Source of the DNA: Vectrevirus T147P1
Reading direction: 5' to 3' (one strand)
DNA length: 43,705 nucleotides
Sequence record: OZ035788.1
Below the pieces are notes generated by a model that was not told where the DNA came from, ran no database searches, and was given only the letters and a program-made list of their open reading frames with translations. Made by a program: the position numbers and the translations under genes. Each line of letters begins with the position of its first letter. Positions within the stretch are counted from its first letter, which is position 1. Positions 1 through 43,705 of the stretch are shown in pieces.

Positions 1-29
1 TAATAAGTTCAAGATTTGGAGAGAGAAGC

Positions 30-329
30 GTGAGCGTACACAATAAACATGCAGCTACAGAGGATGAGGTTGGCATTCTGCATGGTGCTATTACCAAAAT
101 CTTCAATAAGAAAGCACAGGCAATACTGGACACTATAGAAGAAGACCCTGATGCAGCATTACATTTAGTGTCTGGTAAGGATATTGGTGCGATGTGTAAG
201 TGGGTTCTTGATAACGGCATTACCGCCACACCTGCTGCACAGCAGGAAGAGTCCAAGTTATCTAAGCGCCTCAAGGCTATCCGAGAGGCATCCAGTGGTA
301 AGATAATTCAATTCACTAAGGAGGATTGA
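30..329 (+). CDS. terminase small subunit (T7 gp18-like), GTG start
   Basis: 99-aa ORF immediately upstream of and overlapping the large terminase start (TGATG); position conserved in T7/SP6-like genomes; no motif-level confirmation. Confidence 0.5.
   Translation: MSVHNKHAATEDEVGILHGAITKIFNKKAQAILDTIEEDPDAALHLVSGKDIGAMCKWVLDNGITATPAAQQEESKLSKRLKAIREASSGKIIQFTKED
121..143 (+). promoter_or_regulatory. phage RNAP promoter-like site inside terminase small gene
   Basis: CAATACTGGACACTATAGAAGAA matches the window consensus from -14 onward (14/17 upstream positions). Confidence 0.45.
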
Positions 330-2227
330 TGGCTAAGGCAAGAGAATCACAAGCGGAGGCTCTTGCCAGATGGGAGATGCTACAGGAGTTACAGCAGACC
401 TTTCCTTACACAGCGGAAGGTTTGCTTCTCTTTGCAGATACAGTTATTCATAACTTAATTGCAGGCAACCCTCATCTGATTCGTATGCAGGCGGATATCT
501 TGAAGTTCCTATTTTACGGACACAAGTACCGCCTCATCGAAGCACCTCGTGGTATCGCTAAGACAACACTATCAGCAATCTATACGGTATTCCGTATTAT
601 TCATGAACCGCATAAGCGTATCATGGTTGTGTCCCAAAACGCCAAGCGAGCAGAGGAAATCGCAGGTTGGGTAGTTAAAATCTTCCGTGGCTTAGACTTT
701 CTTGAGTTTATGCTGCCGGATATCTACGCTGGGGACCGTGCATCCGTTAAGGCGTTTGAGATTCATTACACCCTACGTGGCAGTGATAAGTCTCCTTCTG
801 TATCATGTTACTCAATCGAAGCAGGTATGCAGGGTGCTCGTGCTGATATTATTCTAGCGGATGACGTAGAGTCGATGCAGAATGCTCGTACGGCAGCGGG
901 CCGTGCCTTGCTTGAGGAACTGACTAAGGAGTTTGAATCTATCAACCAGTTTGGGGATATCATTTACCTTGGTACACCTCAGAACGTAAACTCTATCTAC
1001 AACAACCTACCTGCTCGTGGTTACTCTGTTCGTATCTGGACTGCGCGTTACCCTTCAGTAGAGCAAGAGCAATGTTATGGCGACTTCCTTGCACCTATGA
1101 TTGTTCAAGATATGAAGGACAACCCAGCACTTCGCTCAGGGTACGGGTTGGATGGTAATAGTGGTGCACCTTGTGCCCCTGAAATGTATGATGATGAAGT
1201 CCTGATTGAGAAGGAAATCTCTCAGGGTGCTGCTAAGTTCCAGCTTCAGTTCATGCTTAACACTCGCATGATGGATGCTGACAGATACCCATTACGCCTG
1301 AACAATCTAATCTTCACCTCGTTTGGTACAGAGGAAGTCCCTGTGATGCCTACGTGGAGTAATGATTCCATAAACATCATTGGTGATGCACCTAAGTATG
1401 GTAACAAGCCTACGGATTTCATGTACAGACCTGTAGCTCGCCCATACGAATGGGGTGCTGTCTCCCGCAAGATTATGTATATTGACCCTGCTGGTGGTGG
1501 TAAGAACGGAGATGAGACGGGTGCAGCCATCGTATTCCTGCACGGCACATTCATTTATGTGTATCAGTGCTTTGGTGTACCTGGCGGATACCGAGAGTCG
1601 TCCCTGAATCGCATTGTGCAGGCCGCAAAGCAGGCGGGTGTTAAAGAGGTATTCATTGAGAAGAACTTTGGTCATGGCGCGTTTGAGGCGGTAATTAAGC
1701 CGTATTTTGAACGAGAGTGGCCTGTAACTCTGGAAGAGGATTACGCCACCGGACAGAAAGAGTTGCGTATCATTGAGACGCTGGAGCCGCTCATGGCAGC
1801 CCATAGGCTTATCTTCAATGCAGAGATGGTGAAGTCAGACTTTGAGTCGGTACAGCACTATCCGCTTGAACTACGCATGTCCTACAGTCTTTTCAATCAA
1901 ATGTCGAACATAACGATTGAGAAGAACAGCCTCCGGCACGATGACCGCCTAGACGCCCTGTATGGCGCTATACGGCAATTAACTTCTCAGATAGACTATG
2001 ACGAGGTTACACGGATTAATCGCCTCAGAGCGCAGGAGATGCGCGATTACATCCATGCTATGAATACACCTCATCTACGCAGGGCAATGCTATATGGAGA
2101 TTACGGTACTGAGCGAAGAGTGACCAACACTTCCGTAGCGATGCAGCAGCGAGTTTACGGGCAGAACTACCGAAATAAATCGGCAAGCAGAAATACACTT
2201 TCTGCAAGGATTTCAAGGACTTATTAA
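329..2227 (+). CDS. terminase large subunit (T7 gp19-like)
   Basis: 633-aa ORF; Walker A-like EAPRGIAKTT and Walker B-like IILADDVE; AGGAGG RBS; size and position as in T7-like phages. Confidence 0.9.
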   Translation: MAKARESQAEALARWEMLQELQQTFPYTAEGLLLFADTVIHNLIAGNPHLIRMQADILKFLFYGHKYRLIEAPRGIAKTTLSAIYTVFRIIHEPHKRIMVVSQNAKRAEEIAGWVVKIFRGLDFLEFMLPDIYAGDRASVKAFEIHYTLRGSDKSPSVSCYSIEAGMQGARADIILADDVESMQNARTAAGRALLEELTKEFESINQFGDIIYLGTPQNVNSIYNNLPARGYSVRIWTARYPSVEQEQCYGDFLAPMIVQDMKDNPALRSGYGLDGNSGAPCAPEMYDDEVLIEKEISQGAAKFQLQFMLNTRMMDADRYPLRLNNLIFTSFGTEEVPVMPTWSNDSINIIGDAPKYGNKPTDFMYRPVARPYEWGAVSRKIMYIDPAGGGKNGDETGAAIVFLHGTFIYVYQCFGVPGGYRESSLNRIVQAAKQAGVKEVFIEKNFGHGAFEAVIKPYFEREWPVTLEEDYATGQKELRIIETLEPLMAAHRLIFNAEMVKSDFESVQHYPLELRMSYSLFNQMSNITIEKNSLRHDDRLDALYGAIRQLTSQIDYDEVTRINRLRAQEMRDYIHAMNTPHLRRAMLYGDYGTERRVTNTSVAMQQRVYGQNYRNKSASRNTLSARISRTY

Positions 2228-2248
2228 TTACTGGACACTATAGAAGGA
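2226..2248 (+). promoter_or_regulatory. phage RNAP promoter
   Basis: AATTACTGGACACTATAGAAGGA; overlaps the terminase stop codon. Confidence 0.7.
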
Positions 2249-2270
2249 AGGCCCAGATAATAAGAGAAAA

Positions 2271-2308: not shown

Positions 2309-2382
2309 GCCTTAGTATGGGTGTACTCCTGTACACCCTATTCCTTACTACCTTACTATATTTACATAATAGGAGAGAGACA

Positions 2383-2661: not shown

Positions 2662-2679
2662 GATAAGGAGGAAGATTAC

Positions 2680-2979
2680 ATGGCTAAATATGGTACTACA
2701 GGTTCTGTTACTGGTCAGGCTTTTCGAGTAAAAGCAGTACAAACTATTGCAACGGCAATCCCGATGCCTGTTGTTAAAGAAGCAGACCTTAAGAGTAAAG
2801 ACCACCCTATCAACATCAAACATTTATCAGGTAAACAGAAAGGTGCAATGGTTGCTCTTGAGAAAGGTGACACAACCCTGCATATTGCTGTTGCACGTGG
2901 CAGTGAACCAACAGACCCTTGGGATGTAACTGGTATGGAAGAGGAAGCTGTTACTCCAGCAGGGTATAATAATGCTTAA
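2680..2979 (+). CDS. hypothetical protein, paralog B of a tandem pair
   Basis: AGGAGG RBS; clear paralogy to 2383-2661. Confidence 0.65.
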   Translation: MAKYGTTGSVTGQAFRVKAVQTIATAIPMPVVKEADLKSKDHPINIKHLSGKQKGAMVALEKGDTTLHIAVARGSEPTDPWDVTGMEEEAVTPAGYNNA

Positions 2980-3316
2980 TAAATACTTCAAGCGTAAAGA
3001 GTTTGCTTGCCGTTGTGGCTGCGGTACATCCACTGTTGATGCTGAATTACTACAGGTAGTCACAGATGTGCGTGAGCATTTCGGTGCACCTGTAGTTATC
3101 ACCTCTGGGCATCGCTGTGCTAAGCACAACTCCAATGTAGGAGGAGCTAAGAACTCCATGCATCTTACTGGTAAGGCTGCTGACATTAAGGTACGAGGCA
3201 TCTTACCTTCTGATGTACATAAGTATCTTACTGATAAGTACCAAGGCAAATATGGGATTGGTAAGTATAACTCCTTTACTCATATTGATGTACGTGACGG
3301 GTGTGCACGATGGTAG
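2972..3316 (+). CDS. putative endolysin, zinc peptidase M15-type cell wall hydrolase
   Basis: 114 aa; motif SGHRCxxHNxxVGGAxNSMHLTGKAADI typical of peptidase M15 family; followed by small membrane protein and spanin-like ORFs. Confidence 0.7.
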   Translation: MLNKYFKRKEFACRCGCGTSTVDAELLQVVTDVREHFGAPVVITSGHRCAKHNSNVGGAKNSMHLTGKAADIKVRGILPSDVHKYLTDKYQGKYGIGKYNSFTHIDVRDGCARW

Positions 3317-3424: not shown

Positions 3425-3574
3425 ATGAAAAAGCTGTTCAAATCTAAGAAGGTTGTAGGTGCACTAGTTGCATTGGCAATTGCTCTTGTTTCTGTAGGTC
3501 TTGGTGTAGACCTTGGCTCTGGCACGGAATCCTCTGTGACAGACGTGGTCTGCCAAGTGATCACCTGTGAATAA
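3425..3574 (+). CDS. small single-TMD membrane protein (holin/antiholin-like)
   Basis: 49 aa, MKKLFKSKKVVGALVALAIALVSVGLGV; GGGAG RBS; sits between endolysin and spanins. Confidence 0.45.
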   Translation: MKKLFKSKKVVGALVALAIALVSVGLGVDLGSGTESSVTDVVCQVITCE

Positions 3575-3788
3575 GTTTCTAGAATTGCTGGCAGGTCTTA
3601 TTGGCCTGCTTGTCTCTGCTAAGAAGAAACAAGAAGAGAAGGAGGCACAAAGTGAAGCGAATCATGTTAGTGACAATCCTGCTGATTGGTTCGCTGACCA
3701 CTTCCGGGTGTCAGCAGGCGTTACCAGAGAAAGCAATGGTGAAACCTCTGAGGCCGACGCTGACGGCAGTTTACGAGGTAGACGATAA
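3567..3788 (+). CDS. putative i-spanin (Rz-like), GTG start
   Basis: N-terminal hydrophobic anchor LLAGLIGLLVSA followed by charged region; overlaps an out-of-frame lipoprotein ORF; short for an Rz protein. Confidence 0.4.
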   Translation: MNKFLELLAGLIGLLVSAKKKQEEKEAQSEANHVSDNPADWFADHFRVSAGVTRESNGETSEADADGSLRGRR

Positions 3789-3861
3789 AGTCTGCTTCAG
3801 TAAGCCTGATGCTACAAAATTAGGTTTGTATATTCTTTCGCTAGAACGCGGATATAATTAA
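3652..3861 (+). CDS. putative o-spanin lipoprotein (Rz1-like), GTG start
   Basis: AAGGAGG 6 nt upstream of GTG; signal peptide with lipobox-like LTTSGC; embedded in and extending past the i-spanin ORF in another frame. Confidence 0.5.
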   Translation: MKRIMLVTILLIGSLTTSGCQQALPEKAMVKPLRPTLTAVYEVDDKVCFSKPDATKLGLYILSLERGYN

Positions 3862-3992: not shown

Positions 3993-5885
3993 ATGGCAAG
4001 ATTAACTCGCCCTGTTAGTGTATTTAATAGTCTGATGGATATTACTTACCCATGCTCCACTGATGGTGGTAAAGCGGAACTACTACAGGTTATACCCGGA
4101 CGTATGTCTGGTGGTGGTATCCTACTTTGGGACGCCAGTATGCCTCAGTCCAATCATAATGGTATTACCATCCTCAGCCCTGAAGCTAAATGGGATGGTA
4201 CTCTAGAAGGTTTTAAGGCCTATAGGGAAAGTGGAGGGACTGGCAATGGTTGCTGGGTTCGACCACGCAAAGGTACTGATCTGATGGCATCTTGGGCTGG
4301 TGTTGACACAGACGGGGACTGGATTGCGGATGAGCCACTTATGGCGCTGTGTCAGATTGCACATACACAACGTCGTAATATACGCATAGACTCTGGTGCT
4401 GTCATTCGTTGCGGTTTCACAACTCCGATTTCTCAGCAAGACAAGCACAACATTCTATCTCAAACATCTTTTGTATTACGTGGTTTAAAGAACTTCTCCA
4501 TATATGCTGAGCAAGATGCAGAGATAATCACAGACCACCCTGTACATCGTGAGCGTACAGTATTCTTCTTGGACGGTTGCGATAAGGTTACAATTTCTGG
4601 TCTTAAGTTTAATTCTGATTTCAGCGATTATTCTTTCGAACCTAATAGTCCCTATGAGCACCATATCAATGAACACTGGTTAGGTGTAGTTGCAGAGGCT
4701 TGTGGTACTGTTGAGGTTCGCAGATGTAGGTTCAATGCACCTCAGTTTGCTGTAAAGGCCGACTGTTTTAATAGAACAGACGGTAGGTGGAATGACACAG
4801 TTGCAGTAAAAGATTGTTTCTTCCAGTATGCTACAAACTATTGCTTTTTATCACGTAAGTTACGACATTACATCTTCTCTGATAATGAAGTAAGATTTAA
4901 TGGACGTAAGTGGCATACATATGGAGAGGCTTGTGCTCCTACTACCTATACTGAGAATCAGATTATCACTCGTAACCGTTTCATAGATCAGATTGCTGGT
5001 CAAAGCTGTATAACTCCTGGTTCTTATGCTAAGCAAGTACTTATTTCAGATAACTTCTGTCAACGTAGTAATGGTATCTTTGTTGAGATAGGCAGTGCTA
5101 GTAATATTAATATTCTTAACAACGTCTCCAAATCTACAGGTGAACGCATCGTCCACGGAAGTGATAAGTATGCAGGAACTACACATATCCTTCTAGTATC
5201 TGGGGCAGTTGATGATGAACCTGCTGGTGGGCTAAGTAATATCTTGATTCAAGGTAATAACTTCCAAGGCGGTGGTTATGCTTTACAAGAGTACAATACA
5301 GGCATCCCTATTCGTCGCGGGTTGGATATTCTTAATAACCACCTTGTAGACTGTATTCCACCAGCCTGTACTAACCAATCCTTTAAGTATATTAGGGTAG
5401 AAGGTAACTACATCCAAGCACCGGATGATTACCCAGATATGGCTATTGCAGGTCAACACCCTATTATCAAGGATAATGTCCTTATCGGTGTGCGATTGAG
5501 GGCTAGAGATTTAGGTTATACTGTTGTAGGGTTAAAAGTAATAGGTAATACTTTTACTGCAAATAGTGTAGCATCTAAGTTCCCTGCACTGATAGACTAC
5601 ACTGATCTAGAAGATCTTGAAGCTTATGACAACGCAGCAGGTATTCAGGCATCTTATGATAGCTTTATAGTAGCACCTGATTACTGTAATAAAATTAGCT
5701 TTATGAAAGTAGGTATGGTTGAAGGTTTTACACAGACACCAGCAGCGGTTTATGGTAGTAAGTTGCAAGGCCAGAAGGCAGGTGCGATTGTTGGCAATAG
5801 TGCACCTGGGTCTGTACATGGTTGTGCTGCATTCGTGAGTACTTCTAGTGGTGGTTGGGGTTTTATAAACTACGTTCCCGCATAA
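3993..5885 (+). CDS. tailspike protein 1, beta-helix depolymerase-like
   Basis: 630 aa from the ATG after AGGAGG (ORF opens at 3933); repetitive beta-helix-like segments (NILIQGNNFQGGGY, ITRNRFID); position after terminase as in SP6/K1-5. Confidence 0.75.
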   Translation: MARLTRPVSVFNSLMDITYPCSTDGGKAELLQVIPGRMSGGGILLWDASMPQSNHNGITILSPEAKWDGTLEGFKAYRESGGTGNGCWVRPRKGTDLMASWAGVDTDGDWIADEPLMALCQIAHTQRRNIRIDSGAVIRCGFTTPISQQDKHNILSQTSFVLRGLKNFSIYAEQDAEIITDHPVHRERTVFFLDGCDKVTISGLKFNSDFSDYSFEPNSPYEHHINEHWLGVVAEACGTVEVRRCRFNAPQFAVKADCFNRTDGRWNDTVAVKDCFFQYATNYCFLSRKLRHYIFSDNEVRFNGRKWHTYGEACAPTTYTENQIITRNRFIDQIAGQSCITPGSYAKQVLISDNFCQRSNGIFVEIGSASNINILNNVSKSTGERIVHGSDKYAGTTHILLVSGAVDDEPAGGLSNILIQGNNFQGGGYALQEYNTGIPIRRGLDILNNHLVDCIPPACTNQSFKYIRVEGNYIQAPDDYPDMAIAGQHPIIKDNVLIGVRLRARDLGYTVVGLKVIGNTFTANSVASKFPALIDYTDLEDLEAYDNAAGIQASYDSFIVAPDYCNKISFMKVGMVEGFTQTPAAVYGSKLQGQKAGAIVGNSAPGSVHGCAAFVSTSSGGWGFINYVPA

Positions 5886-5970: not shown

Positions 5971-7683
5971 ATGCTTCAAAGATTAAGTGCTTACTTGGTG
6001 AAGTACAAGAGTAAACTAACAGGTACTATTGAGCGCCTGCTATCTGATAAACTATCGGATACAATAGATGTTGCGGATTTTGGAGTTAATCCATCTTCTA
6101 ATGACAACAGGCAAGCCCTTCAAGCTGCATTCAATGCGGTCAGATTTCTAGGCGGTGGTACTGTATCAGTCACTAAAGCTGGCGAATATAAACTCAGTGG
6201 TACTGTTGAGATATTTGCTAATACACACTTCAAGGTTGCTAAAGGTGTAACATTTGTACGTGACTACGAAACAGGAGATACGCTATTCAGATTATCACAA
6301 GGGCAAGCTAGTAATGTAACAGTCAGTGGAGGTGTCTATGAAGGCAATGGTCACATTAAAGGAGATACACCTTTTGTAGTATTTGCATCTACTAGTAATA
6401 ATGATTTGAAGTTTGAAGGCATAACAGTTAACAATGTAGTGGACTACCACGCCATAGATTTAGCAGATTGGAACAACGTAGTTATTCGTGATTGTAAGTT
6501 CCTAGGGTTTAAGAATACAGGCAGTCGTAACTTCTCAGAGGCTATACAGTTAGACCCAGGACTTATTACAGTAGGTCGCTATGTGCAGTCTAGTGGTTTA
6601 CTGGTAGAGAATTGCTATGCTGGCCCAAACCTTGATTCTGGATTTGGCGGGTATGGTGCTCTAGTAGGAAATCATGCATCAGCTTATGGTGTTCAAGATA
6701 ACAACATTAGAATCCTAAATTGCACTACAGATGGTGCGCTCTTTGCAGGTGTACGTGTATTTAACTGGAAAAACTGGACAGTACGTGGTTGCACCTTTAG
6801 AAACTCTAATGCAAGAGGTATTCATGTTACACCTGTCTCCTCTCAAACTAAACCGCAAGGAACTCGACAAGGTAGTGTTGTAGATTGTACTTTTGATGGC
6901 GTAAGAACACCAGTGCTAATTGCGGCACCATCTTGGCCTTTTACCGATATTAGTGACATTTGGCATGACCATGTTGAAGTTTCTAATAATACTATGATCC
7001 TCACAGAGGATGTATCCTATGGTATAGATGCAAGGTGGTGTAAGAATTTAATTGTAAAAGGTAATACAGGCTCTGGTGGCTTAGGGTTAATCGGTTTACG
7101 CTTTGGGACAAAATACCACATCGAAGGTAATACTTGGGAAAACGGAAGAGGTAGTGGGATTTGGTTAGGTGAGTCTGATGCTGCTACATTCATTGGTACT
7201 GGCTTATCGGGCGAAGGTATACTTAGTCGTAATATCCTCTCTAAATTAGGGCAATATGGTATTCATGTAAACTGCAAGGTTGGCGGTCTAGTGATTAAGG
7301 CTAATAATATGAAGGAAGTATCTACAGCTGAAGCAGGTAGGCACTTCATTAGCATAGACACAGGAGCTAACAACATCCTAGTAGAAGGTAATATTGGAGT
7401 AGATGGAGAAAGCCCTAACAAGCCAAGCCTTGGTATTCGTGTTACTTCTTCTTGCTCCAATATTAAACTAATTGGCAATGATTGCTATGGTACGCAAGCA
7501 CCTCAGAATAACCAAGGAGTCGGTTCTAGTACGGTGATTGTTTATGGACTAAATGGTAATCCTACAACTTTAGGCGTAGGTGCACCTGTAGGCTCTTTAG
7601 CAACTGATATCAATGGGTCTGGTGGTAGTACATTGTACGTTAAAGAATCTGGTACATCTGCTCAAGGTTGGGTTGCAAAGTAG
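5971..7683 (+). CDS. tailspike protein 2, pectate-lyase-like beta-helix
   Basis: 570 aa; AGGAGG RBS; repeated beta-helix rungs (NNIRILNCTTDG, VRGCTFRNSNARGIHV). Confidence 0.75.
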   Translation: MLQRLSAYLVKYKSKLTGTIERLLSDKLSDTIDVADFGVNPSSNDNRQALQAAFNAVRFLGGGTVSVTKAGEYKLSGTVEIFANTHFKVAKGVTFVRDYETGDTLFRLSQGQASNVTVSGGVYEGNGHIKGDTPFVVFASTSNNDLKFEGITVNNVVDYHAIDLADWNNVVIRDCKFLGFKNTGSRNFSEAIQLDPGLITVGRYVQSSGLLVENCYAGPNLDSGFGGYGALVGNHASAYGVQDNNIRILNCTTDGALFAGVRVFNWKNWTVRGCTFRNSNARGIHVTPVSSQTKPQGTRQGSVVDCTFDGVRTPVLIAAPSWPFTDISDIWHDHVEVSNNTMILTEDVSYGIDARWCKNLIVKGNTGSGGLGLIGLRFGTKYHIEGNTWENGRGSGIWLGESDAATFIGTGLSGEGILSRNILSKLGQYGIHVNCKVGGLVIKANNMKEVSTAEAGRHFISIDTGANNILVEGNIGVDGESPNKPSLGIRVTSSCSNIKLIGNDCYGTQAPQNNQGVGSSTVIVYGLNGNPTTLGVGAPVGSLATDINGSGGSTLYVKESGTSAQGWVAK

Positions 7684-7842: not shown

Positions 7843-7913
7843 GCAGGTTAATATCTTAGTGTACACAAGGGTAGACCTAGGTTTGCTCTTAGTGTATTTA
7901 CAATGGAGGTCTT

Positions 7914-7994
7914 ATGTATATACCTATGGAAGCAATAGTAGGTTGCCTATGCTTGTTGATAGGTTTCGTTATAGGCTTAATAGTAAATCCTTAG
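7914..7994 (+). CDS. tiny hydrophobic peptide
   Basis: 26 aa MYIPMEAIVGCLCLLIGFVIGLIVNP with GGAGG RBS 5 nt upstream. Confidence 0.3.
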   Translation: MYIPMEAIVGCLCLLIGFVIGLIVNP

Positions 7995-8056
7995 TCCTGT
8001 ACAAGGATTAACCAAAGTCAAAATTTTGATATAGGCGTGTGTCAGCTCTCTCGCCC

Positions 8057-8330
8057 TCGCCCTCGCCGGATTTCCCCCATATGGGGCCGCGCTGCGGTTG
8101 GCTTGGGAATTGGGCTGGGCTGGTCCGTCTTCGACGGGTGGCCTAGGGCTTGCCGAGGTCTGCTCTTAGTGACTGCACAAGGAGAACGCCTAGGAAGCGC
8201 TAGGGCACGCCTTAGTATTGGACAAGGTGATTGCCTTAGTGAAGCCTCTTAGTGCATTCCTTAGGCCATTCAGGGTGTTTATGAGGGATTGACAGGGTAT
8301 GATGGCGTGGGCTATCTGTTCGTTTCGTTC
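8057..8330. other. candidate terminal-repeat / physical genome end region
   Basis: GC-rich block beginning TCTCTCGCCCTCGCC, with palindrome CCCCATATGGGG (8085-8096) and a T7 CJ-like ATCTGTT (8313-8319); strongly reminiscent of the T7 terminal repeat; exact ends not determinable. Confidence 0.4.
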
Positions 8331-8638
8331 ACTCCGCTTGCGCTACGTTCACTCGCTCACGTGTACCTTAGGTTATTACTTGATGGATAGCTTAGGTTAA
8401 CCTTAGTGGACTACCTTAGTTAAAGCCTTAGTGCTTATCTTAGTAATAGCTTAGTAGTGTACCTTAGTAAGTCTTAGTGTCTTCTCTTAGTGATTGCACA
8501 TGCAAGCATGTAAGATGCCATTAGGTCGCGGTCGGTAGACCGCTAAAGAAAGAGAATAGTAATAAGATGCAGTAAGAGGAACACCGGAAACCTAGCCAAC
8601 CTAACCTATCCTAGCTCTGTATCTATTGCTTTTCCTTA

Positions 8639-8654
8639 GTCTCACATGTTAGAC
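8639..8654. repeat. degenerate copy of the 16-bp palindrome (GTCTCACATGTTAGAC)
   Basis: One mismatch to GTCTCACATGTGAGAC. Confidence 0.4.
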
Positions 8655-8688
8655 AACCTATCTTATTCTTAGTGATGATAACTTAGTG

Positions 8689-8717
8689 TTGACAAGATAA
8701 TCTTAGTGTAATACTAT
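8689..8717 (+). promoter_or_regulatory. candidate host sigma70 early promoter
   Basis: TTGACA, 17-nt spacer, TACTAT, upstream of the first early genes. Confidence 0.35.
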
Positions 8718-8860
8718 GCATCACGTAGGCGGTGCTGAGGCACCTAGTAGCCAGCTAGTAAGGCATACGAAGAGACTAGTGCTTACATTGCTCTTTAACA
8801 ATTTGCTTAGTGTAACCTATGTATGCCGTGGTTAATTACTTATTGAATGAGGGATTAACT

Positions 8861-16830: not shown

Positions 16831-16847
16831 TGTATTTATCAGGGCTT

Positions 16848-31039: not shown

Positions 31040-31044
31040 TCAGT

Positions 31045-31067
31045 ATTTACTGGACACTATAGAAGGG
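31045..31067 (+). promoter_or_regulatory. phage RNAP promoter for the capsid gene
   Basis: ATTTACTGGACACTATAGAAGGG. Confidence 0.8.
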
Positions 31068-31115
31068 AGAAATGTCTCCCTAAAATATCACTTTGATTTA
31101 TAAGGAGGTTTATTA

Positions 31116-32324: not shown

Positions 32325-32332
32325 TACCTATG

Positions 32333-32366
32333 CCCTATCTACCTTGCGTAGGTAGGGTTATTTTTG
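32333..32366 (+). terminator. terminator after the capsid gene (T-phi-like)
   Basis: CCCTATCTA-CCTTGCG-TAGGTAGGG hairpin followed by TTATTTTTG. Confidence 0.6.
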
Positions 32367-32378
32367 TTAGGAGGATTC

Positions 32379-35518: not shown

Positions 35519-36264
35519 TGGCTATAGGTTCAGCCGTTATGGCTGGTATGTCTTCTATTGGTAGTATGTTTGCAGGTAGCGGTGCAGCCGCCGCTGCTGG
35601 TGGTACTGCCGCAGCAGCAGGAGGGACAGCCGCCGCAGGTGGCGGAGGTTTGCTTGGCTCCCTTGGTAGTTTCTTAGGAGGTACTTCTGCTGGCTTCTCT
35701 AATGCAGGACTGCTTAGTGCAGGTATGCAAGGTCTTGGTCTTCTAGGCAATCTTTTTGGTGGAAGTGATGAAGCCAAAGCTATGAAGAAAGCTCAGGAGG
35801 AGCAATGGCGGCAGCAGTTAATTGCTACACAAGAAGCATATAAGACAGTGGCAGATGCAGAACGCTCTGCTGCTAAACAGTATCATGCGGATGCAATAAG
35901 CAATCAGGCTTCACTGCTACAGCAAAGAGCGCAGGTTGCACTACTTGCAGGTGCAACTGGCACTGGTGGTAACTCTGTATCTTCTATGCTGAATGACTTA
36001 GCAGCAGAGGGCGGGAGGAACCAGAGTACAATTATTGATAACTATGAGAATCAGAAGATTAACTTCACCAATCAGCTTAAGTCTATCCAGCGAGGTGGAC
36101 AGATGCAGATGCGTGAGTTTAAGAAGCCTTCTGCCGTGAGCACCTTGGTGCAAGGTATACCGAGTCTGGCATCTGCCTATGTAACAGGTAGTAAGTCCGG
36201 CATGGCTTTAGGTAAAGCTTTAACTGATTCTCGTACATATTCATCTGGAACAAGAGGTATTTAA
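35518..36264 (+). CDS. internal virion protein, Gly/Ala-rich (gp13/14-like)
   Basis: About 248 aa; TAATG coupling (ORF opens at 35479); low-complexity G/A-rich N-terminus. Confidence 0.7.
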   Translation: MAIGSAVMAGMSSIGSMFAGSGAAAAAGGTAAAAGGTAAAGGGGLLGSLGSFLGGTSAGFSNAGLLSAGMQGLGLLGNLFGGSDEAKAMKKAQEEQWRQQLIATQEAYKTVADAERSAAKQYHADAISNQASLLQQRAQVALLAGATGTGGNSVSSMLNDLAAEGGRNQSTIIDNYENQKINFTNQLKSIQRGGQMQMREFKKPSAVSTLVQGIPSLASAYVTGSKSGMALGKALTDSRTYSSGTRGI

Positions 36265-39212
36265 TGGCAATTGAGCGACAAGCAGTACAAGGTCTGCCAC
36301 AAGTGCAGGCCACTTCTCCTAATGTCATGACCTTTGCACCTCAGCGAGTTGGAGGTGTGGAGGCTGGCGTAGCTTCTACCTCCGGTAGTCGATTTATCGA
36401 AGACCTTATTCGAGCAGCCAGTAGTGTAGCTGATGTAACCACTGGTATCCTTAATCAAAAGATTGAGGAAGATAAGGTTGTTCAAATGGAACGGGCATAT
36501 AACGGATTAATGCCTTCTGAGGATGCAACTCGTGGTGGCGCTCGTGCTAACATGCTTGTCAAAGCTCAACTGCTAGCTAATGATGAAGCAGCACGAATGA
36601 AAGACATGGCTACTCGTTTCCAAGGAACGGATGACGAGTGGACACAACTTATGGTTGACTCTCGTAATGAGATGCAGAATAAGCTGTTCCAGCAATACCC
36701 TGAGTTGCAAGGTGACAAAGATACTATGCGTATGGTCACTAATGTCTTCCAAGAACAGCAGCCTCAGATTTGGGCTACACGAACCAAGCATAAACTTGAC
36801 CGTGAACAAGCAGACCGTGAGGATACCTTTGACGGGCGAGTGGCTTCTACTTGGGATTCTAATATTGACCCTGAAGCCTCTGGTTATGCTTTACAGGAAC
36901 GAATCCGCGAAGGTCTTACTCAAGGATTACTACCCGAACAGATGCACAAGAAGTTAGTCCAGCGAGCAATTTCACTTGCACAAGGCGGTGATGTTAGCAT
37001 GGCTGAAGCCCTGAAGTATGTGAAGGACGATAAGGGTGTTTCTGTTTATGCTAAGAATCCACAGCTTATCACAGCCATCACTAGTGGTAATGCAGTTTGG
37101 GCTAGGAATAATGTAGCTGATGTAACTCGTATGTCTTTCGAAGTTAAAGAATCCTACCTTGCAGGTGATTTAACTGATGAAGAATTGTTGGAACGAGCAC
37201 AGCACATTAATAATCTGACAGGTAACTCTGTCTTCTCTAATCCAGAACTAGAGGCACTGATGCGCCAACGGGCTAAGCAGAATGCAGAGCTAGGTGCAAT
37301 GCAGGATATGCGACGTGAGCTTTACTCCGACCGCCTGACTGGCTTCCAAGGTAAGAGTGATAAAGAGAAGAAGGCTTACATTGATGTTATCAAACGGGAT
37401 AGCCAACTTTATGCAGACCAGCAAATCAAACAACGTGGCTTGGACCCTTACAGTCAAGAGGCTGAAGCTATTCGTGGTGCAGTGGAAGTGCAGCGTCTGC
37501 AATTCATGAATTCTAAAGGCTTAGTGGATGATACCTTTGAGTCTCGTATCAAAGCCATGGAATCTATGCTATCGCCTGAGCACTTTGCCAAGGGCGAACC
37601 ACAGGAGTTGATGACTATTCGCCAGTTGTGGGAACAGTTGCCAGAAGAGAGCCGAGGTGTCTTTGGTGACACGGTGAATGGCTACATGGATAACTACAAC
37701 ACTGCACTACAAATGGGAGAGACACCTTTGCAGGCTGCAAGGTTTGCGCGTGAAGCACAGCAGAAATTCTCTCGTACTGAGAAGGAAACCAAGAAGTTCA
37801 ACTCAGCTATTGGAGATGCACTGGATGAGGTATCTGGTGCTGGCTGGTTTGATGGTAAAACCGAAGTGTCAGACTTAGGTAAAGCTATTGCGGAAGAAGA
37901 GTTACGAGCTAAGGCCAATATGTTGTGGTCTAGTGGTATGCGTAACATGGATTCTATCAAGAAGGCTTTAATTACTTGGGGCAATAAACGCTACACTCAA
38001 ACAGAGGATGCAAAGACTTCCGGTGGCTATTTCATTAAAGGTGATTACACTTCTGCATCTGATATGCTTATGTCAGTTGGGAAAGGCGTAAACCCTACCG
38101 ATGTGCCTCTGGCGCTTGGTAGGTATGTAGAAACACAGATGCCAGAATTGAAGAAGGAGCTTCAAGAGTGGGAAACTAAAGATGATATATACATTGATTA
38201 CAATGAACAGAAAGGAACTTTTGTGATTCGTGCTGGTGCAGCAGGTCGCCCTCTTTCTGGAGTAATCCCTGTAACCTCTTTAGATACTACTTCACTACTA
38301 GATTCTGCCTATCAGAAGAAAGTAGAGGAACGAGATAAAGGCGAGTATGTTCACCCGTATCGTACAGATATTGGTGCACAAGAGCCTATGCCGGCTAAAC
38401 CAACTGCCAAAGATATTGGTAAATTTGGACTAGCTAACTTCCTCATGTCTTCTGCTTTTGCTTCTGGTGAGAATCTGCCTTCTAACTTCGAGATTAACTA
38501 TCGAGGTAATATGCAACAATTCTATGACAAGCTAGCTATGGATGAGAATAAAGATAAAGTTGGCTTTAATAAGGCAACTGGAACCTTTACTCCATATAAA
38601 GACGCTCACGGTGAGTCTATCGGTTACGGTCATTTCTTAACGGAAGAAGAGAAGCGAAACGGGTATATTAAGATTGGCGATGAACTAGTTCCCTATCGAG
38701 GGTCTATGTCTCAGCTTACAGAGAGCAAGGCTCGCGCTCTTATGGAGCAAGATGCTAAGAAGCATGTGCCTCCTACTCGTGACTGGAAGATTCCGTTTGA
38801 CCAGATGCATCCTGCACAGCAACGTGGCTTGATGGATTTAACCTACAATTTAGGTAAAGGTGGAATCCAGAACTCACCGCGTGCTCTTGCTGCATTCAAA
38901 GCTGGTAAGCTTACGGAAGGCTTTATCGAAATGCTGGGCACTGCATCAAGTGAAGGTAAGCGTATTCCTGGCCTACTGAAGCGACGCGCTGAGGCATACA
39001 ATATGGCATCTGCTGGTGGTGTGCCTAAGATTACCGAAGTGGAGACTCGTGAAGATGGCTCCATGTGGGTTAGGTTTGGTGGACCTATGCCAGCAGGTTC
39101 TGTCTCGGCATGGACTCATAAACGTATTGGCGCGGATGGTTGGTATCAGGTTTATGAGGCTGCACCTACCAAGTTAGCTAAAGGTTCTAAGGTAGGTAAA
39201 GTTAAGTTGTAG
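36264..39212 (+). CDS. internal virion protein with C-terminal lysozyme-like domain
   Basis: 982 aa; C-terminal segment HGESIGYGHFLTEEEK...DLTYNLGKGG resembles the T4-lysozyme-type muramidase fold; position of T7 gp15. Confidence 0.8.
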   Translation: MAIERQAVQGLPQVQATSPNVMTFAPQRVGGVEAGVASTSGSRFIEDLIRAASSVADVTTGILNQKIEEDKVVQMERAYNGLMPSEDATRGGARANMLVKAQLLANDEAARMKDMATRFQGTDDEWTQLMVDSRNEMQNKLFQQYPELQGDKDTMRMVTNVFQEQQPQIWATRTKHKLDREQADREDTFDGRVASTWDSNIDPEASGYALQERIREGLTQGLLPEQMHKKLVQRAISLAQGGDVSMAEALKYVKDDKGVSVYAKNPQLITAITSGNAVWARNNVADVTRMSFEVKESYLAGDLTDEELLERAQHINNLTGNSVFSNPELEALMRQRAKQNAELGAMQDMRRELYSDRLTGFQGKSDKEKKAYIDVIKRDSQLYADQQIKQRGLDPYSQEAEAIRGAVEVQRLQFMNSKGLVDDTFESRIKAMESMLSPEHFAKGEPQELMTIRQLWEQLPEESRGVFGDTVNGYMDNYNTALQMGETPLQAARFAREAQQKFSRTEKETKKFNSAIGDALDEVSGAGWFDGKTEVSDLGKAIAEEELRAKANMLWSSGMRNMDSIKKALITWGNKRYTQTEDAKTSGGYFIKGDYTSASDMLMSVGKGVNPTDVPLALGRYVETQMPELKKELQEWETKDDIYIDYNEQKGTFVIRAGAAGRPLSGVIPVTSLDTTSLLDSAYQKKVEERDKGEYVHPYRTDIGAQEPMPAKPTAKDIGKFGLANFLMSSAFASGENLPSNFEINYRGNMQQFYDKLAMDENKDKVGFNKATGTFTPYKDAHGESIGYGHFLTEEEKRNGYIKIGDELVPYRGSMSQLTESKARALMEQDAKKHVPPTRDWKIPFDQMHPAQQRGLMDLTYNLGKGGIQNSPRALAAFKAGKLTEGFIEMLGTASSEGKRIPGLLKRRAEAYNMASAGGVPKITEVETREDGSMWVRFGGPMPAGSVSAWTHKRIGADGWYQVYEAAPTKLAKGSKVGKVKL

Positions 39213-39229
39213 TACCTAACTCAAGGCTT

Positions 39230-39245
39230 GTCTCACATGTGAGAC
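39230..39245. repeat. 16-bp palindrome GTCTCACATGTGAGAC (copy 6)
   Basis: Extended inverted repeat GGCTTGTCTCACA / TGTGAGACAGGTC between two internal virion protein genes. Confidence 0.8.
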
Positions 39246-39276
39246 AGGTCTTTATGATAGGCACTATGGAGGAATT

Positions 39277-42200
39277 ATGGAACAAGACATTAAGACTAAT
39301 TGGGCTGGATATGTCCAGTCTACTCCTGAGCCGTTTTCTATTGAGGCGGCTCCGGTATCGGCTCCTACGATACGCCAGCGTAATGAGTTACAAGAGCAAG
39401 TTCTTGAAGCTAAAGCTGACGCTGATATTTTAGGTGCTGTAGGTGCTGCCTTCCAGAATGAGTGGTTGGCATTCGGAGGCAAGCGGTGGTATGACCGTGC
39501 CACTGCTGATTTCACACCTCAACCAGACTTTGAGATACAACCTGAGCAACGTGAAGCACTACGTTTCAAATATGGTACGGATATGATGCAGACAATCACG
39601 GAGGGTGTTCGTTCTGAGGATGAATTGAACTTCCGTATTCAGAATGCTGATGAAGACCTTGAGCGCAATAAGCGCATTGCTCAGGCTGGCTGGGTTGGCT
39701 CTGTGGCGACGATTGGCGCTGCTGTGCTTGACCCTGTGGGATGGGTTGCCTCTATTCCAACCGGCGGTGCCGCTAAAGTTGGACTCGTAGGCCGTGCTGT
39801 GCGTGGCGCTATCGCCGCTGGCGTAAGTAATGCCGCTATTGAATCCGTATTGGTCCAAGGTGACATGACTCGTGATTTAGATGACATTATGGTAGCACTA
39901 GGCTCCGGTATGGCTATGGGTGGCGTTATTGGCGCTGTAGCGCGTGGTAGGGCCACTAAGCTCAGTGAGCAAGGGGATGACAGGGCTGCGAGCATTGTGC
40001 GCAGTGCAGACGCAGGGGACCGCTATGTGCGTGCTGTTGCTGATGATAGTATTGGTGCGATGCGTGTTAAGGGTGAAGAGGTACTCACTGAGGGTGCATT
40101 TGATATCTCTAGCAAAGGTGAAGATTTGCTGAAAACCCTACAGCGGGAAGGTAATGCAATTGATATGACCCCTCGCCGCTGGGCCGGAACTCTGTCTGCC
40201 CTTGGTACTGTCGTACATTCCTCTCAGGATGCAAGTGTACGCGGCCTTGGTGCTCGCCTGTTTGAGTCCCCCCAAGGCTTAGGTATGCAGAAGGCATCTG
40301 CTAGTCTCATGCAGAATACTAACTTGAACCGTCTGAAATCTGCTGATATGAATCGTTTCAACGATGGGGTCGATTTATGGCTCAAAGAGAATAATATCAA
40401 CCCGGTTGCAGGTCATACTAACTCTCACTATGTGCAGCAATATAATGAGAAGGTATGGGAAGCTGTACGCATCGGTATGGATGAGTCTACGCCTAAGTCT
40501 ATCCGTATGGCAGCAGAAGGGCAGCAAGCTATGTATCGTGAAGCATTAGCATTACGTCAACGCTCTGGTGAAGCTGGGTTTGAAAAGGTTAAAGCAGATG
40601 ATAAGTACATGCCTGATATTTTTGACAGTATGAAGGCTCGTCGTCAGTTCAGTATGCACGATAAAGAGGACATCATTGAGTTATTCTCTCGTGCATACCA
40701 GAATGGCTCTCGTAAGGTTCCAAAGGAAGTGGCTGATGATATTGCACGAGCACAAGTAAACCGCGTTGCTGATGCCACCTTGACCGGACAGCTTAGCTTT
40801 GAAAAGGCTATGTCTGGTCAAACCAAAGCAGAATATGAAGCACTCATGCGCAAAGCAGGCTTTAGTGATGAAGAGATTGAAAAGATGGTAGAAGCTCTGG
40901 ATAATAAAGAAACCAGAGATAATATCTCTAACCGAGCTAAGATGAGTTTAGGCTTAGATGTTACTCAAGAGTACAATGGTATTCGTATGCGTGACTTTAT
41001 GAACACTAACGTGGAAGAGTTAACAGATAACTACATGAAGGAAGCGGCAGGTGGTGCTGCCTTGGCTCGTCAAGGTTTCTCTACCTATCAGGCTGCACTT
41101 AATGCAATTGATCTTGTAGAGCGAAATGCACGAAATGCAGCTAAAGATACAAAAGCACACGCACAATTTGAAGCGGAGTCGGCTAAGATCCGTCAATCAG
41201 AGCCTGATTACAAGAAGGCACAAGAGAAGATTGAAGAGTTAAAGAAGCGACTTAAATTGAAAGAGAAAGATGAAGCAGCAGGTCTGGCTATTGATGAAGA
41301 AATCCGTCAGATGCGAGAGGGGCTTCGCCTGATTATGGGTAAATCTATCGATTCAAACCCACAAGATTTGTCTACTAAAATGCTGCGTCGTGGGCGTGAC
41401 ATTACAGGCGTACTTCGCTTAGGTCAGATGGGCTTCGCACAGCTAGGTGAACTTGCTAACTTCATGGGTGAGTTTGGTATTGCTGCCACCACTATGGCTT
41501 TAGGTAAGCAATTCCGCTTCACCTCTAAGGCGTTGCGTAATGGCGATGGCTTCTTTCGAGATAAGAATTTAGCTGAGGTTGAGCGAATGGTAGGTTACAT
41601 TGGTGAAGACAACTGGCTAACAACTAAGGGTGCGCGTCCAGATGAGTTTGGTGATGTAACCACAGTGCGAGGTATGATGGCTCACTTTGACCAGTCCATG
41701 AACTCTATACGACGTGCTCAGACAAACCTATCCCTCTTCCGCATGGCACAGGGTTCTCTAGAGCGAATGACCAATAGGCAAATAGCTTTGTCTTTCATTG
41801 ACCACCTTGAAGGCAAGAAGATTATTCCTCAGAAGAAACTGGAGGAACTTGGTCTTACTCAGGAGTTCATGACTAACCTACAGAAGCACTATGATGCTAA
41901 CTCTAAGGGTTCTGGCTTGCTTGGCTTTGATACAATGCCTTATGCCATGGGTGAAACTTTAGCTAATGCTATTCGTCGTAAGTCAGGTCTAATTATCCAA
42001 CGTAACTTCATTGGTGATGAAGGTATCTGGATGAACAAAGCACTAGGTAAGACATTTGCACAGCTTAAGTCATTTTCTCTTGTATCTGGTGAGAAGCAAT
42101 TTGGTCGAGGGATTCGCCACGATAAGATTGGTCTAGCTAAGAAGACAGCCTTTGGCTTTGCTTTGGGTTCGATGGTGTATGCAGCGAAAGCCTATGTGAA

Positions 42201-42585
42201 CTCTATTGGACGAGAAGACCAAGATGAATATCTGGAAGAGAAGTTATCGCCTAAAGGGTTGGCCTTTGGTGCAATGGGTATGATGAGTACAACTGCTGTA
42301 TTTAGTCTAGGTGGAGATTTCTTAGGTGGCCTAGGTGTTCTACCTTCTGAGTTAGTACAATCCCGTTATGAGGCTGGCTTTCAGACTAAGGGTTTGATAG
42401 ACCAAATACCACTAGTAGGTGTTGGTCAAGATGCATATCGTTTAGCAGATTCTATAACTAAATATGCAGAGGGTGATACAGAAGGTGTAGATGTGGCACG
42501 TAGGGCTTTACGCTTAGTGCCTCTGACTAATGTAATAGGAATCCAGAACGCATTGCGTTATGGCTTAGATGAACTGGAGGATTGA
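39277..42585 (+). CDS. large internal virion protein (gp16-like)
   Basis: 1102 aa; GGAGG RBS; largest structural ORF, position as T7 gp16. Confidence 0.8.
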   Translation: MEQDIKTNWAGYVQSTPEPFSIEAAPVSAPTIRQRNELQEQVLEAKADADILGAVGAAFQNEWLAFGGKRWYDRATADFTPQPDFEIQPEQREALRFKYGTDMMQTITEGVRSEDELNFRIQNADEDLERNKRIAQAGWVGSVATIGAAVLDPVGWVASIPTGGAAKVGLVGRAVRGAIAAGVSNAAIESVLVQGDMTRDLDDIMVALGSGMAMGGVIGAVARGRATKLSEQGDDRAASIVRSADAGDRYVRAVADDSIGAMRVKGEEVLTEGAFDISSKGEDLLKTLQREGNAIDMTPRRWAGTLSALGTVVHSSQDASVRGLGARLFESPQGLGMQKASASLMQNTNLNRLKSADMNRFNDGVDLWLKENNINPVAGHTNSHYVQQYNEKVWEAVRIGMDESTPKSIRMAAEGQQAMYREALALRQRSGEAGFEKVKADDKYMPDIFDSMKARRQFSMHDKEDIIELFSRAYQNGSRKVPKEVADDIARAQVNRVADATLTGQLSFEKAMSGQTKAEYEALMRKAGFSDEEIEKMVEALDNKETRDNISNRAKMSLGLDVTQEYNGIRMRDFMNTNVEELTDNYMKEAAGGAALARQGFSTYQAALNAIDLVERNARNAAKDTKAHAQFEAESAKIRQSEPDYKKAQEKIEELKKRLKLKEKDEAAGLAIDEEIRQMREGLRLIMGKSIDSNPQDLSTKMLRRGRDITGVLRLGQMGFAQLGELANFMGEFGIAATTMALGKQFRFTSKALRNGDGFFRDKNLAEVERMVGYIGEDNWLTTKGARPDEFGDVTTVRGMMAHFDQSMNSIRRAQTNLSLFRMAQGSLERMTNRQIALSFIDHLEGKKIIPQKKLEELGLTQEFMTNLQKHYDANSKGSGLLGFDTMPYAMGETLANAIRRKSGLIIQRNFIGDEGIWMNKALGKTFAQLKSFSLVSGEKQFGRGIRHDKIGLAKKTAFGFALGSMVYAAKAYVNSIGREDQDEYLEEKLSPKGLAFGAMGMMSTTAVFSLGGDFLGGLGVLPSELVQSRYEAGFQTKGLIDQIPLVGVGQDAYRLADSITKYAEGDTEGVDVARRALRLVPLTNVIGIQNALRYGLDELED

Positions 42586-43547
42586 TGAGTTATACTTTCA
42601 CAGAACATATAGCCAACGGTACGCAAGTAACCTATCCCTTTAGATTTGCTGGCAGGGATAAAGGCTATCTTCGTGCCTCAGATGTGATAGTGGAATCTCT
42701 TCAAGGTAACACTTGGATTGAGGTTACATCTGGCTGGCAATTAACTGGTACGCATCAAATCACTTTTGATGTAGCACCTGTTGCAGGTTTGAAGTTCCGT
42801 ATTCGAAGGGAAGTACAAAAGGAATATCCATACGCTGAGTTTGACCGTGGTGTTACCTTGGATATGAAGTCTTTAAATGGCTCTTTCATTCATATACTGG
42901 AGATTACACAGGAGTTACTTGATGGGTTTTATCCAGAAGGATACTTCATTAAACAGAATGTAAGCTGGGGCGGCAATAAGATTACTGATTTGGCTGATGG
43001 CACAAATCCGGGAGATGCAGTAAATAAGGGGCAGCTTGATGCCATCGACAAGAAGCATACAGATTGGAACGCCAAACAGGACATTGAGATTGCTGGCCTT
43101 AAGGCTGGTATGACTTCTGGTATTGCGCACAGAACTGTTCCTTGGTACACGATAGCCCAAGGTGGTGAGATTTCCGTAAAACCACCTTATGAATTTCAAG
43201 ATGCACTAGTTTTCCTTAATGGGGTATTGCAGCACCAAATTGTAGGCGCATACTCTATAAGCAACAACACTATCACTTTCGCAGAGCCGCTTGTGGCTGG
43301 TACAGAGGTGTATGTGTTGATTGGTAGTCGTGTGGCTACATCTGAACCTAATATTCAGTTAGAGTTGAACTTTGACTTAGTAGAAGGCCAACAAGTAGTA
43401 CAGATTGGCTCTGCATTTAAGTACATTGAGGTCTACCTTGATGGATTATTACAACCTAAACTTGCTTATCAGGTAGACGGTGACATTGTTACTTTCTCAG
43501 AGGGAGTGCCAGAATGCCGGATGACTGCTAAGATTATCACAGAATAA
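42585..43547 (+). CDS. tail fiber N-terminal-domain-like tailspike adaptor
   Basis: About 320 aa; TGATG coupling (ORF opens at 42582); TYPFRFAGRDKGYLRASDV...GNKITDLADGTNPGDAVNKGQLD resembles the tail-binding N-terminal domain of T7 gp17 and lacks a receptor-binding C-terminus. Confidence 0.75.
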   Translation: MSYTFTEHIANGTQVTYPFRFAGRDKGYLRASDVIVESLQGNTWIEVTSGWQLTGTHQITFDVAPVAGLKFRIRREVQKEYPYAEFDRGVTLDMKSLNGSFIHILEITQELLDGFYPEGYFIKQNVSWGGNKITDLADGTNPGDAVNKGQLDAIDKKHTDWNAKQDIEIAGLKAGMTSGIAHRTVPWYTIAQGGEISVKPPYEFQDALVFLNGVLQHQIVGAYSISNNTITFAEPLVAGTEVYVLIGSRVATSEPNIQLELNFDLVEGQQVVQIGSAFKYIEVYLDGLLQPKLAYQVDGDIVTFSEGVPECRMTAKIITE

Positions 43548-43556
43548 GGAGGTGGG

Positions 43557-43705
43557 ATGATTAACTCCGAACTGGTAGATAGTGGTGTGAAGCTTGCGCC
43601 ACCTGCACTCGTATCAGGTGGGTACTTCCTCGGTATCAGTTGGGATAATTGGGTGTTAATAGCAACATTCATTTATACCGTGTTGCAAATTGGGGACTGG
43701 TTTTA
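43557..43705 (+). CDS. class II holin (T7 gp17.5-like), 3' end runs off the window
   Basis: AGGAGG RBS; one TMD (VLIATFIYTVLQIG) resembling T7 gp17.5; reading continues in frame into bases 1-46 of the window if the ends are joined. Confidence 0.65.
   Translation, partial: MINSELVDSGVKLAPPALVSGGYFLGISWDNWVLIATFIYTVLQIGDWF

Follow-up and report, generated by a model that had tools for sequence, protein, structure and literature searches.

The stretch of DNA analysed here, the window, is a phage genome record of 43,705 bp (OZ035788.1) whose last bases lie inside an open reading frame. This raises the question of whether the edges of the record are the ends of a DNA molecule, or only mark the point at which a circular-looking assembly was opened. 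The reading frame begins with an ATG at 43557, preceded by AAGGAGG, and direct reading of the sequence finds it open through base 43705, a span of 149 nt or 49 codons and 2 bases. When base 43705 is joined to base 1, the latter supplies the third base of a TAT codon, after which the frame reads ...WFYNKFKIWREKRERTQ up to a TAA at 44-46. An earlier sequence-only reading had described this same course of the frame, and direct reading agrees with it in all but the length of the product. The joined protein counts 64 amino acids, not 65, a figure reached only when the stop codon is included. The list of open reading frames made for this stretch includes no holin.

The joined 64-residue sequence is identical to a protein in the public databases, ANT40791.1, annotated as 'holin [Escherichia phage AAPEc6]', and is present on 140 contigs. 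It matches PF10746, the T7-holin family (Phage_holin_2_2), over profile positions 1-61 of 61 with 95.5 bits (E = 1.5e-27), above the curated Pfam cut-off of 25.4 bits. In alignment, the identity is 98% to the K1-5 protein, 80% to that of SP6 and only 33% to that of T7. In spite of this last difference, T7 gp17.5 is similar in length (67 amino acids versus 64), has the conserved YTVxQIG core and a basic C-terminal tail, and is encoded at the same position. Indeed, the order of tail fibre, holin and small terminase is the order of T7 genes 17, 17.5 and 18, and the tail of the protein, KFKIWREKRERTQ, is strongly basic; the earlier description of a holin with a basic tail, just upstream of the small terminase as in T7, thus holds. 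A Kyte-Doolittle plot contains a strong hydrophobic segment around residues 31-47 and a weaker one around 13-27, which would give one or two membrane spans. From family membership, we infer that the frame spanning the junction encodes a class II holin of the T7 gp17.5 family.

The junction itself is contiguous in K1-5 and in about 20 other independent phage genomes. K1-5 bases 35367 and 35368 align to bases 43705 and 1 gap-free, with no base missing or added. A 1200-nt probe spanning the join matched K1-5 in a single piece at 99.1%, and 26 records were matched across at least 80% of the probe length. After rotation, the record is colinear with all of K1-5, with each gene matched once. It had been claimed from the letters alone that the genome is complete and its boundary a matter of rotation, with alignment to SP6 and K1-5 proposed as a check, and this is what the K1-5 alignment and the contiguity in the other genomes bear out. 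The size of 43.7 kb is likewise in the range of SP6, as had been stated (43,769 bp for SP6 and 44,385 bp for K1-5). The statement that every expected module occurs exactly once can be kept as far as the modules are concerned, but the lysis module is split and there are two tailspike genes.

It could be imagined that the edges are nevertheless true physical or contig ends, in which case the frame from 43557 would be a truncated gene or pseudogene and its continuation from base 1 a coincidence. Only the linear presentation without terminal overlap speaks for this, and its probability is negligible in view of the identity of the joined protein to a widely deposited holin, the base-for-base contiguity of K1-5 over the join, and a terminal-repeat homologue situated 8 kb away. 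An exact search found no overlap of at least 10 nt between the ends of the record, from which it follows that trimming or rotation of the contig had taken place beforehand. A further indication comes from Vectrevirus T147P1 (OZ035797.1), whose record is identical to the window over its opening 60 nt and over its closing 60 nt; this shared start and end point to a deliberate rotation of the records. Other OZ0357xx Vectrevirus records also have a base 1 that aligns to base 1 here, and further related records start at the small terminase GTG (position 30 here) or at the holin ATG. A preprint on Vectrevirus phages with similarly styled names describes sequencing from Nextera libraries, assembly by SPAdes and annotation by Prokka, and gives no rotation rule. 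Relatives carry homing-endonuclease insertions near the junction. The idea that these fall at 43705|1 was considered and rejected; the HNH gene of AAPEc6 sits between the two terminase genes.

If the edges of the record are not the ends of the molecule, these have to be sought elsewhere. In the record of K1-5, two exact copies of a 234-bp direct terminal repeat (DTR) are present, whereas the homologue of this repeat occurs only once in the window. To the left of this homologue lies the unique sequence of the K1-5 right end and to its right the unique sequence of the K1-5 left end, as in a concatemer junction. The repeat region is about 75% identical to that of K1-5, from which it differs by a 26-nt insertion and smaller indels. 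Two further records mark the same boundaries: KAW1A4500, which has both repeat copies, starts at the equivalent of 8049 and ends at that of 8314, and EC120 starts, by alignment, at the equivalent of 8315 and ends at that of 8314. The left boundary differs by 2 nt, being 8051 by K1-5 and 8049 by KAW1A4500. The heptamer CTTAGTG, which clusters around this region, has 22 copies in the genome, a number reached in 0 of 100 shuffles. In SP6-like phages, DTRs of 179-261 bp are known.

By homology, the DNA in the virion most likely has fixed ends and no circular permutation; the ends are predicted at about 8049-8051 (left) and 8314 (right). One repeat copy having collapsed in the record, the physical genome is predicted to measure about 43,969 bp, and its DTR about 264 bp; the deposited length would then be one copy short. 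The term 'circularly permuted' in the sequence-only reading is then appropriate for the record, but not for the virion DNA, given the single homologue of the K1-5 repeat. With headful packaging, the virion DNA would consist of terminally redundant circular permutations, and the record boundary would reflect an arbitrary one of these. Assembly of such a genome would also yield a seamless circular join. However, the terminase is of the T7 type, at 99.8% identity to that of K1-5, and not of a pac type, the boundaries of the repeat homologue match the record ends of K1-5, KAW1A4500 and EC120, both flanks of the repeat are conserved, several relatives have been deposited with ends at the same positions, and the group has experimentally mapped repeats. 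On this indirect evidence, it is very improbable that this phage packages by headful.

Very probably, the record represents the whole genome of a virulent Vectrevirus with fixed-end linear virion DNA, the terminal repeats of which were collapsed and which was rotated and opened inside the holin gene. Short reads would have given a contig that looks circular, with both copies of the terminal repeat merged into one. This contig would then have been linearised 29 nt before the start of the small terminase gene, a site that is arbitrary but conventional; as this gene begins within the 3' end of the holin gene, it is the holin gene that is cut. In the particle, the DNA would be linear, running from about 8051 through 43705 to 1 and ending at 8314. 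The split holin gene is a bookkeeping artefact and no biological oddity. Its main significance is one of annotation hygiene: in this phage group, the holin gene overlaps the small terminase gene and is cut when a linear record is opened shortly before the latter, so that gene callers miss or shorten it.

Table 1. Features of the 43,705-bp window
Feature	Position	Strand	Evidence or relatives
Holin gene, 5' part (codons 1-49 and 2 bases)	43557..43705	+	RBS AAGGAGG; Pfam PF10746 1.5e-27; PHROG 920 holin
Holin gene, 3' part (last base of codon 50, codons 51-64, TAA 44-46); basic tail	1..46	+	Joined protein = ANT40791.1; 98% to K1-5 gp38
Small terminase subunit, GTG start, 17-nt overlap with holin 3' end	30..329	+	100% to K1-5 gp39; PF11123; PHROG 891
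Large terminase subunit, T7 type	329..2227	+	99.8% to K1-5 gp40; PF22530 2.8e-35
Endolysin, Peptidase_M15_3	2972..3316	+	Without N-terminal signal or hydrophobic segment
49-aa protein, N-terminal transmembrane segment, probable i-spanin	3425..3574	+	PHROG 4712 label 'holin'; i-spanin family PMC6139136
Lipoprotein o-spanin, Rz1-like	3652..3861	+	PHROG 8971; lipobox LTTSGC
Tailspike 1, 630 aa, beta-helix, in place of K1-5 K5 lyase	3993..5885	+	99% to T147P1, T147P9, LF31P3
Tailspike 2, 570 aa, beta-helix, in place of K1-5 endosialidase	5971..7683	+	96-99% in about 20 Vectrevirus records
Cluster of CTTAGTG heptamers around terminal-repeat region	7855..8812	+	13 of 22 genome-wide copies
Direct-terminal-repeat homologue, single copy, 264 bp	8051..8314	.	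K1-5 exact 234-bp DTR, alignments, exact string search
Single-subunit phage RNA polymerase	11376..14003	+	99.3% to K1-5 gp7; PHROG 414
Structural module: portal, scaffold, capsid, tail tube A and B, three internal virion proteins, tail-fibre adaptor	28569..43547	+	

On nucleotide similarity, the phage is a member of the genus Vectrevirus (K1-5/K1E group, Molineuxvirinae). The genus criterion is a genome-wide similarity to type members of more than about 70%; the values here (identity multiplied by coverage) are about 83% to K1-5 and about 95% to T147P1, and each of the best 25 nucleotide matches is either a Vectrevirus or an unclassified Escherichia phage of that group. The genome also has the traits of the genus: a single-subunit RNA polymerase with its own promoters (9-12 of the K1-5 type, all on the + strand), genes on one strand and the K1-5 gene order. 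As to a linear genome with short DTRs at fixed ends, another genus trait, the record contains one repeat homologue in a context like that of a concatemer junction, from which the ends are predicted by homology. A search of the genome for tRNA genes found none. The designation 'SP6-like' in the sequence-only reading is right at the level of the subfamily, in an older and broader sense, but not at that of the genus, as SP6 is a Zindervirus.

K1-5 (AY370674; Vectrevirus K15) resembles the phage in gene order throughout, promoter consensus and terminal-repeat boundaries, and in the sequence of the holin, both terminase subunits and the RNA polymerase (98%, 100%, 99.8% and 99.3% identity). It differs in that gp5, gp12, gp15.5 and gp49 have no match here, and in its K5 lyase and K1 endosialidase, which are replaced by other beta-helix tailspikes; both replacements are already known from relatives. 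Its repeat is shorter, and its record is not rotated as the window is. SP6 (AY370673) shares the order of genes 37 to 49, but belongs to another genus, and the Salmonella phage records matched in nucleotide searches fit a band of 60-80% identity. T147P1 (OZ035797.1) is close, with about 95.2% similarity over 99% of the length and both tailspikes at 99%, but not identical: short segments are replaced near 9.7, 16.7-17.2, 21.1, 23.4 and 26.6 kb. As this similarity to the nearest deposited relative sits right on the species line, a distinct Vectrevirus species with a longer repeat (about 264 bp versus 234 bp in K1-5) is conceivable, albeit unlikely. Less likely still are true ends that differ from those of K1-5, which would mean that the packaging site has shifted within the genus. 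As a whole, the window presents an ordinary E. coli phage of the K1-5/K1E type and no new biology.

The lysis genes deserve separate consideration, since a second protein carries a holin label. The lysis module is split: the holin gene is at the junction, whereas the genes for an M15 endolysin and for a pair of separated spanins follow that for the large terminase. In T7, in contrast, the spanin genes are placed between those of the two terminase subunits, and gp3.5, an amidase, serves as the lysin. A class II holin together with a separated spanin pair is known from LL11. The 49-aa membrane protein encoded at 3425-3574 belongs to PHROG 4712, labelled 'holin', and its gene is flanked by those of the endolysin and the lipoprotein spanin. 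It could thus be the real holin, and the junction frame would then encode, for example, an antiholin or an accessory membrane protein; consistent with this, KBNP1315 ORF46, a distant homologue of the junction protein, gave only moderate growth inhibition in a functional test. This assignment is nevertheless quite improbable, because the junction protein scores far above the curated T7-holin cut-off at the position of T7 gene 17.5, and because the 49-aa protein combines a single transmembrane segment at the N-terminus with a short, cysteine-terminated soluble tail, and the lipoprotein gene lies directly downstream. This layout is typical of i-spanin/o-spanin pairs, and Kongari et al. (PMC6139136) list K1-5, K1E and SP6 both in an i-spanin family and in an o-spanin family. 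On topology, the adjoining lipoprotein gene and these families, the PHROG label was rejected, and the 49-aa protein is a probable i-spanin.

With the junction protein as the predicted holin, lysis may proceed as follows. Late in infection, the holin would accumulate in the inner membrane and open holes at a set time; such timed permeabilisation is supported only indirectly, by an endolysin that has no signal. The holes would release this cytoplasmic M15 endolysin, and the separated spanin pair would then break the outer membrane.

An ATG at position 43557, preceded by AAGGAGG, opens a frame that stays open through base 43705 (149 nt). When base 43705 is linked to base 1, the frame continues (...WFYNKFKIWREKRERTQ) to a TAA at 44-46, as had been read from the sequence alone. 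The product is a protein of 64 aa; the 65 aa given earlier include the stop codon, while the assignment to a holin family and the basic tail stand. Three independent lines of evidence demonstrate that this join is real. An identical 64-aa protein is deposited as ANT40791.1, "holin [Escherichia phage AAPEc6]", occurs on 140 contigs and is named class II holin in UniRef. Furthermore, the alignment to K1-5 (AY370674) that had been proposed as a check pairs window 41282-43705 with K1-5 32944-35367 and window 1-4006 with K1-5 35368-39380. These blocks abut at 35367/35368, so that K1-5 runs over the join with no base missing or added. Finally, a 1200-nt junction probe, made up of the final 600 and initial 600 bases of the window, is matched over at least 80% of its length by 26 records, K1-5 matching it in a single piece (99.1%); under the match, all annotated records carry tail fibre, holin and the two terminase genes, small and large. 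The window ends do not overlap by 10 nt or more. The phage is of a known kind, and the split of its holin gene is an artefact of the record boundary.

The junction ORF covers the entire profile of Pfam PF10746 (Phage_holin_2_2, the T7 family) with 95.5 bits (cut-off 25.4 bits; E = 1.5e-27), and it matches PHROG 920, "holin", at 5.8e-28. Its identity amounts to 98% with K1-5 gp38, 80% with SP6 gp38 and 33% with T7 gp17.5, and the YTVxQIG core is kept in the alignment with these holins. In the hydropathy profile, a strong hydrophobic segment (about residues 31-47) follows a weaker one (about 13-27), and the tail is very basic. The GTG at 30 is the start of the small terminase gene, whose first 17 nt are shared with the end of the holin gene; K1-5 genes 38 and 39 overlap in exactly this way. 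T7 has genes 17, 17.5 and 18 (tail fibre, holin and small terminase, respectively) in this order, and so the earlier remark that the holin lies just upstream of the small terminase "as in T7" is right as far as this neighbourhood goes. In EC120, by contrast, the two genes lie about 390 bp apart (35352-35744) and the holin is annotated with 74 aa; EC120, AAPEc6 and others have an HNH gene between the two terminase genes. The holin-terminase region is an insertion hotspot. A phage-promoter-like site, ATACTGGACACTATAGAAGAA (123-143; two mismatches to the consensus), lies within the coding sequence of the small terminase and precedes the large terminase gene.

The top matches of the window are Vectrevirus records, with T147P1 (OZ035797.1) at about 96-97% identity over 95-100% of the query, followed by K1-5, K1E, AAPEc6, VEc3, LL11 and EC120. 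Since BLAST-based identity multiplied by coverage is about 95.2% for T147P1 and about 83% for K1-5, the window can be assigned to the genus Vectrevirus (Molineuxvirinae). "SP6-like" is correct in the sense of the old Sp6-like group, but SP6 itself belongs to another genus, Zindervirus. After rotation, the K1-5 proteins fall at one site each in the window and follow the order of K1-5, except for gp5, gp12, gp15.5, gp46 (K5 lyase) and gp49, for which the K1-5 protein search gave no match, and gp47 (endosialidase), of which only the first 100 residues match (34% identity). The K1-5-type promoter TTACTGGACACTATAGAAGAG occurs in 9-12 copies on the + strand, with none expected by chance, and no tRNA genes were found in the window. 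On this protein placement and the scans for modules, promoters and tRNAs, the genome is complete with every module present once, as had been claimed. Four segments without megablast-level alignment to T147P1 (9659-9992, 16665-17263, 21042-21247 and 23399-23581) represent small replacements of accessory genes in the early region and in that of DNA metabolism.

Lysis genes, tailspikes and PHROG modules of the window
Feature	Coordinates	Location or type	Evidence or remark
M15 peptidase endolysin	2972-3316	downstream of large terminase	PF08291, 1.1e-33
49-aa protein	3425-3574	after endolysin	one N-terminal membrane segment
Lipoprotein	3652-3861	after 49-aa gene	lipobox; PHROG 8971, Rz-like spanin
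Tailspike, 630 aa	3993-5885	beta-helix	replaces a K1-5 spike
Tailspike, 570 aa	5971-7683	beta-helix	replaces a K1-5 spike
Ocr-like anti-restriction protein, RNA polymerase, primase/helicase, DNA polymerase, exonuclease			PHROG
Endonuclease VII, phosphoesterase, nucleotide kinase, ligase		DNA metabolism	PHROG
Portal, scaffold, capsid, two tail-tube proteins, three internal virion proteins, tail-fibre adaptor		virion	PHROG
Both terminase subunits		packaging	PHROG

The first and last 60 bases of T147P1 are those of the window, base 1 of other OZ0357xx Vectrevirus records aligns to window base 1, and in still other deposits the first base is that of the terminase GTG or of the holin ATG. The cut therefore reflects a shared convention of rotating records so that they open close to the small terminase gene, and marks no biological boundary. 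Its practical consequence is that the window's ORF list lacks any holin. A preprint on a collection of phages, among them Vectrevirus members with names of like style (e.g. T145_P2), describes Nextera libraries assembled with SPAdes into single contigs (PRJEB69283) and gives no rotation rule; we infer that the OZ0357xx records come from this collection.

The physical ends seem to lie elsewhere. The K1-5 record carries an exact direct terminal repeat of 234 bp, of which the first 19 bases are found at window 8051 and the last (GGCGTGGGCTA) end at 8314. To the left of 8051 lies the counterpart of the sequence preceding the right-hand repeat of K1-5, and to the right of 8314 that of the sequence following its left-hand repeat. 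Thus, the window consists of right-end unique sequence, one repeat copy and left-end unique sequence, which is the structure of a concatemer junction or a collapsed assembly. KAW1A4500, with both repeat copies, runs from the equivalent of 8049 to that of 8314; the EC120 record starts at the equivalent of 8315 and ends at that of 8314; fTuEco01 and Mt1B1_P10, the latter annotated with "direct terminal repeats", have record ends at about 8049-8050. On the repeat homologue, its flanks and these record ends, fixed ends are predicted from homology at about 8049-8051 and 8314; the repeat would measure about 264-266 bp and the physical genome about 43,969 bp. Published repeats of relatives measure 179 bp (UAB_Phi78, Bal31-mapped), 208 bp (KBNP1315) and 261 bp (AAPEc6). 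With such fixed ends and a single repeat homologue, "circularly permuted" fits the record, but most likely not the virion DNA. A good sigma-70-like promoter (8689-8717; TTGACA, 17-nt spacer, TACTAT) lies beyond the repeat region, as expected at a T7-like left end. CTTAGTG heptamers cluster inside the repeat homologue and on both flanks: of 22 copies in the genome, 13 lie within 7855-8812, all on the + strand. In T7, arrays of short repeats occur close to the genome ends.

The remaining lysis genes lie apart from the holin. PHROG 4712 labels the 49-aa protein "holin", a possibility rejected on its topology, its lipoprotein neighbour, the spanin survey of Kongari et al., in which one i-spanin and one o-spanin family each include K1-5, K1E and SP6, and the LL11 announcement ("a class-II holin, endolysin ... 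and a separated spanin pair"). Given these families and this description, the 49-aa gene is taken for a putative i-spanin, with the junction ORF as the only holin, and the PHROG label is probably misleading. The endolysin N-terminus has neither signal nor hydrophobic segment. Judging from family membership, the holin would perforate the inner membrane and let out the cytoplasmic endolysin, which would cleave peptidoglycan, and the spanins would subsequently disrupt the outer membrane. A functional study of a distant holin homologue (KBNP1315 ORF46) reported moderate toxicity and synergy with endolysin.

Both tailspikes differ from the K5 lyase and endosialidase of K1-5, and are 96-99% identical to spikes of other Vectrevirus records; the replacement is ordinary receptor-binding-protein swapping of spikes already known. 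The 630-aa spike is also about 43-48% identical to spikes of Kagunavirus and Kayfunavirus phages, suggesting that spikes have been exchanged across genera. On the whole, the observation made in the sequence-only reading is confirmed and its interpretation supported with four corrections, concerning holin length, genus, permutation, and the split lysis module with two tailspikes.

Two adjacent paralogous small genes (2383-2661 and 2680-2979), homologues of K1-5 gp41 and gp42 with about 36% mutual identity, encode proteins of 92-99 aa without a Pfam match; both match PHROG 2725, "acetyl-CoA acetyltransferase", a doubtful label for proteins of this size. Finally, a 35-nt near-perfect palindromic element, TCAGGGCTTGTCTCACATGTGAGACAGGCTCTTAT, is present at 16839-16873, 18022-18056 and 39221-39255, always intergenic and on the coding strand, each copy forming a 13-bp hairpin (z = -4.6 to -7.0). 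Its core has two copies in K1-5 and three each in T147P1 and EC120; the element may act as a terminator, be bound by a protein or mark a site of RNA processing.
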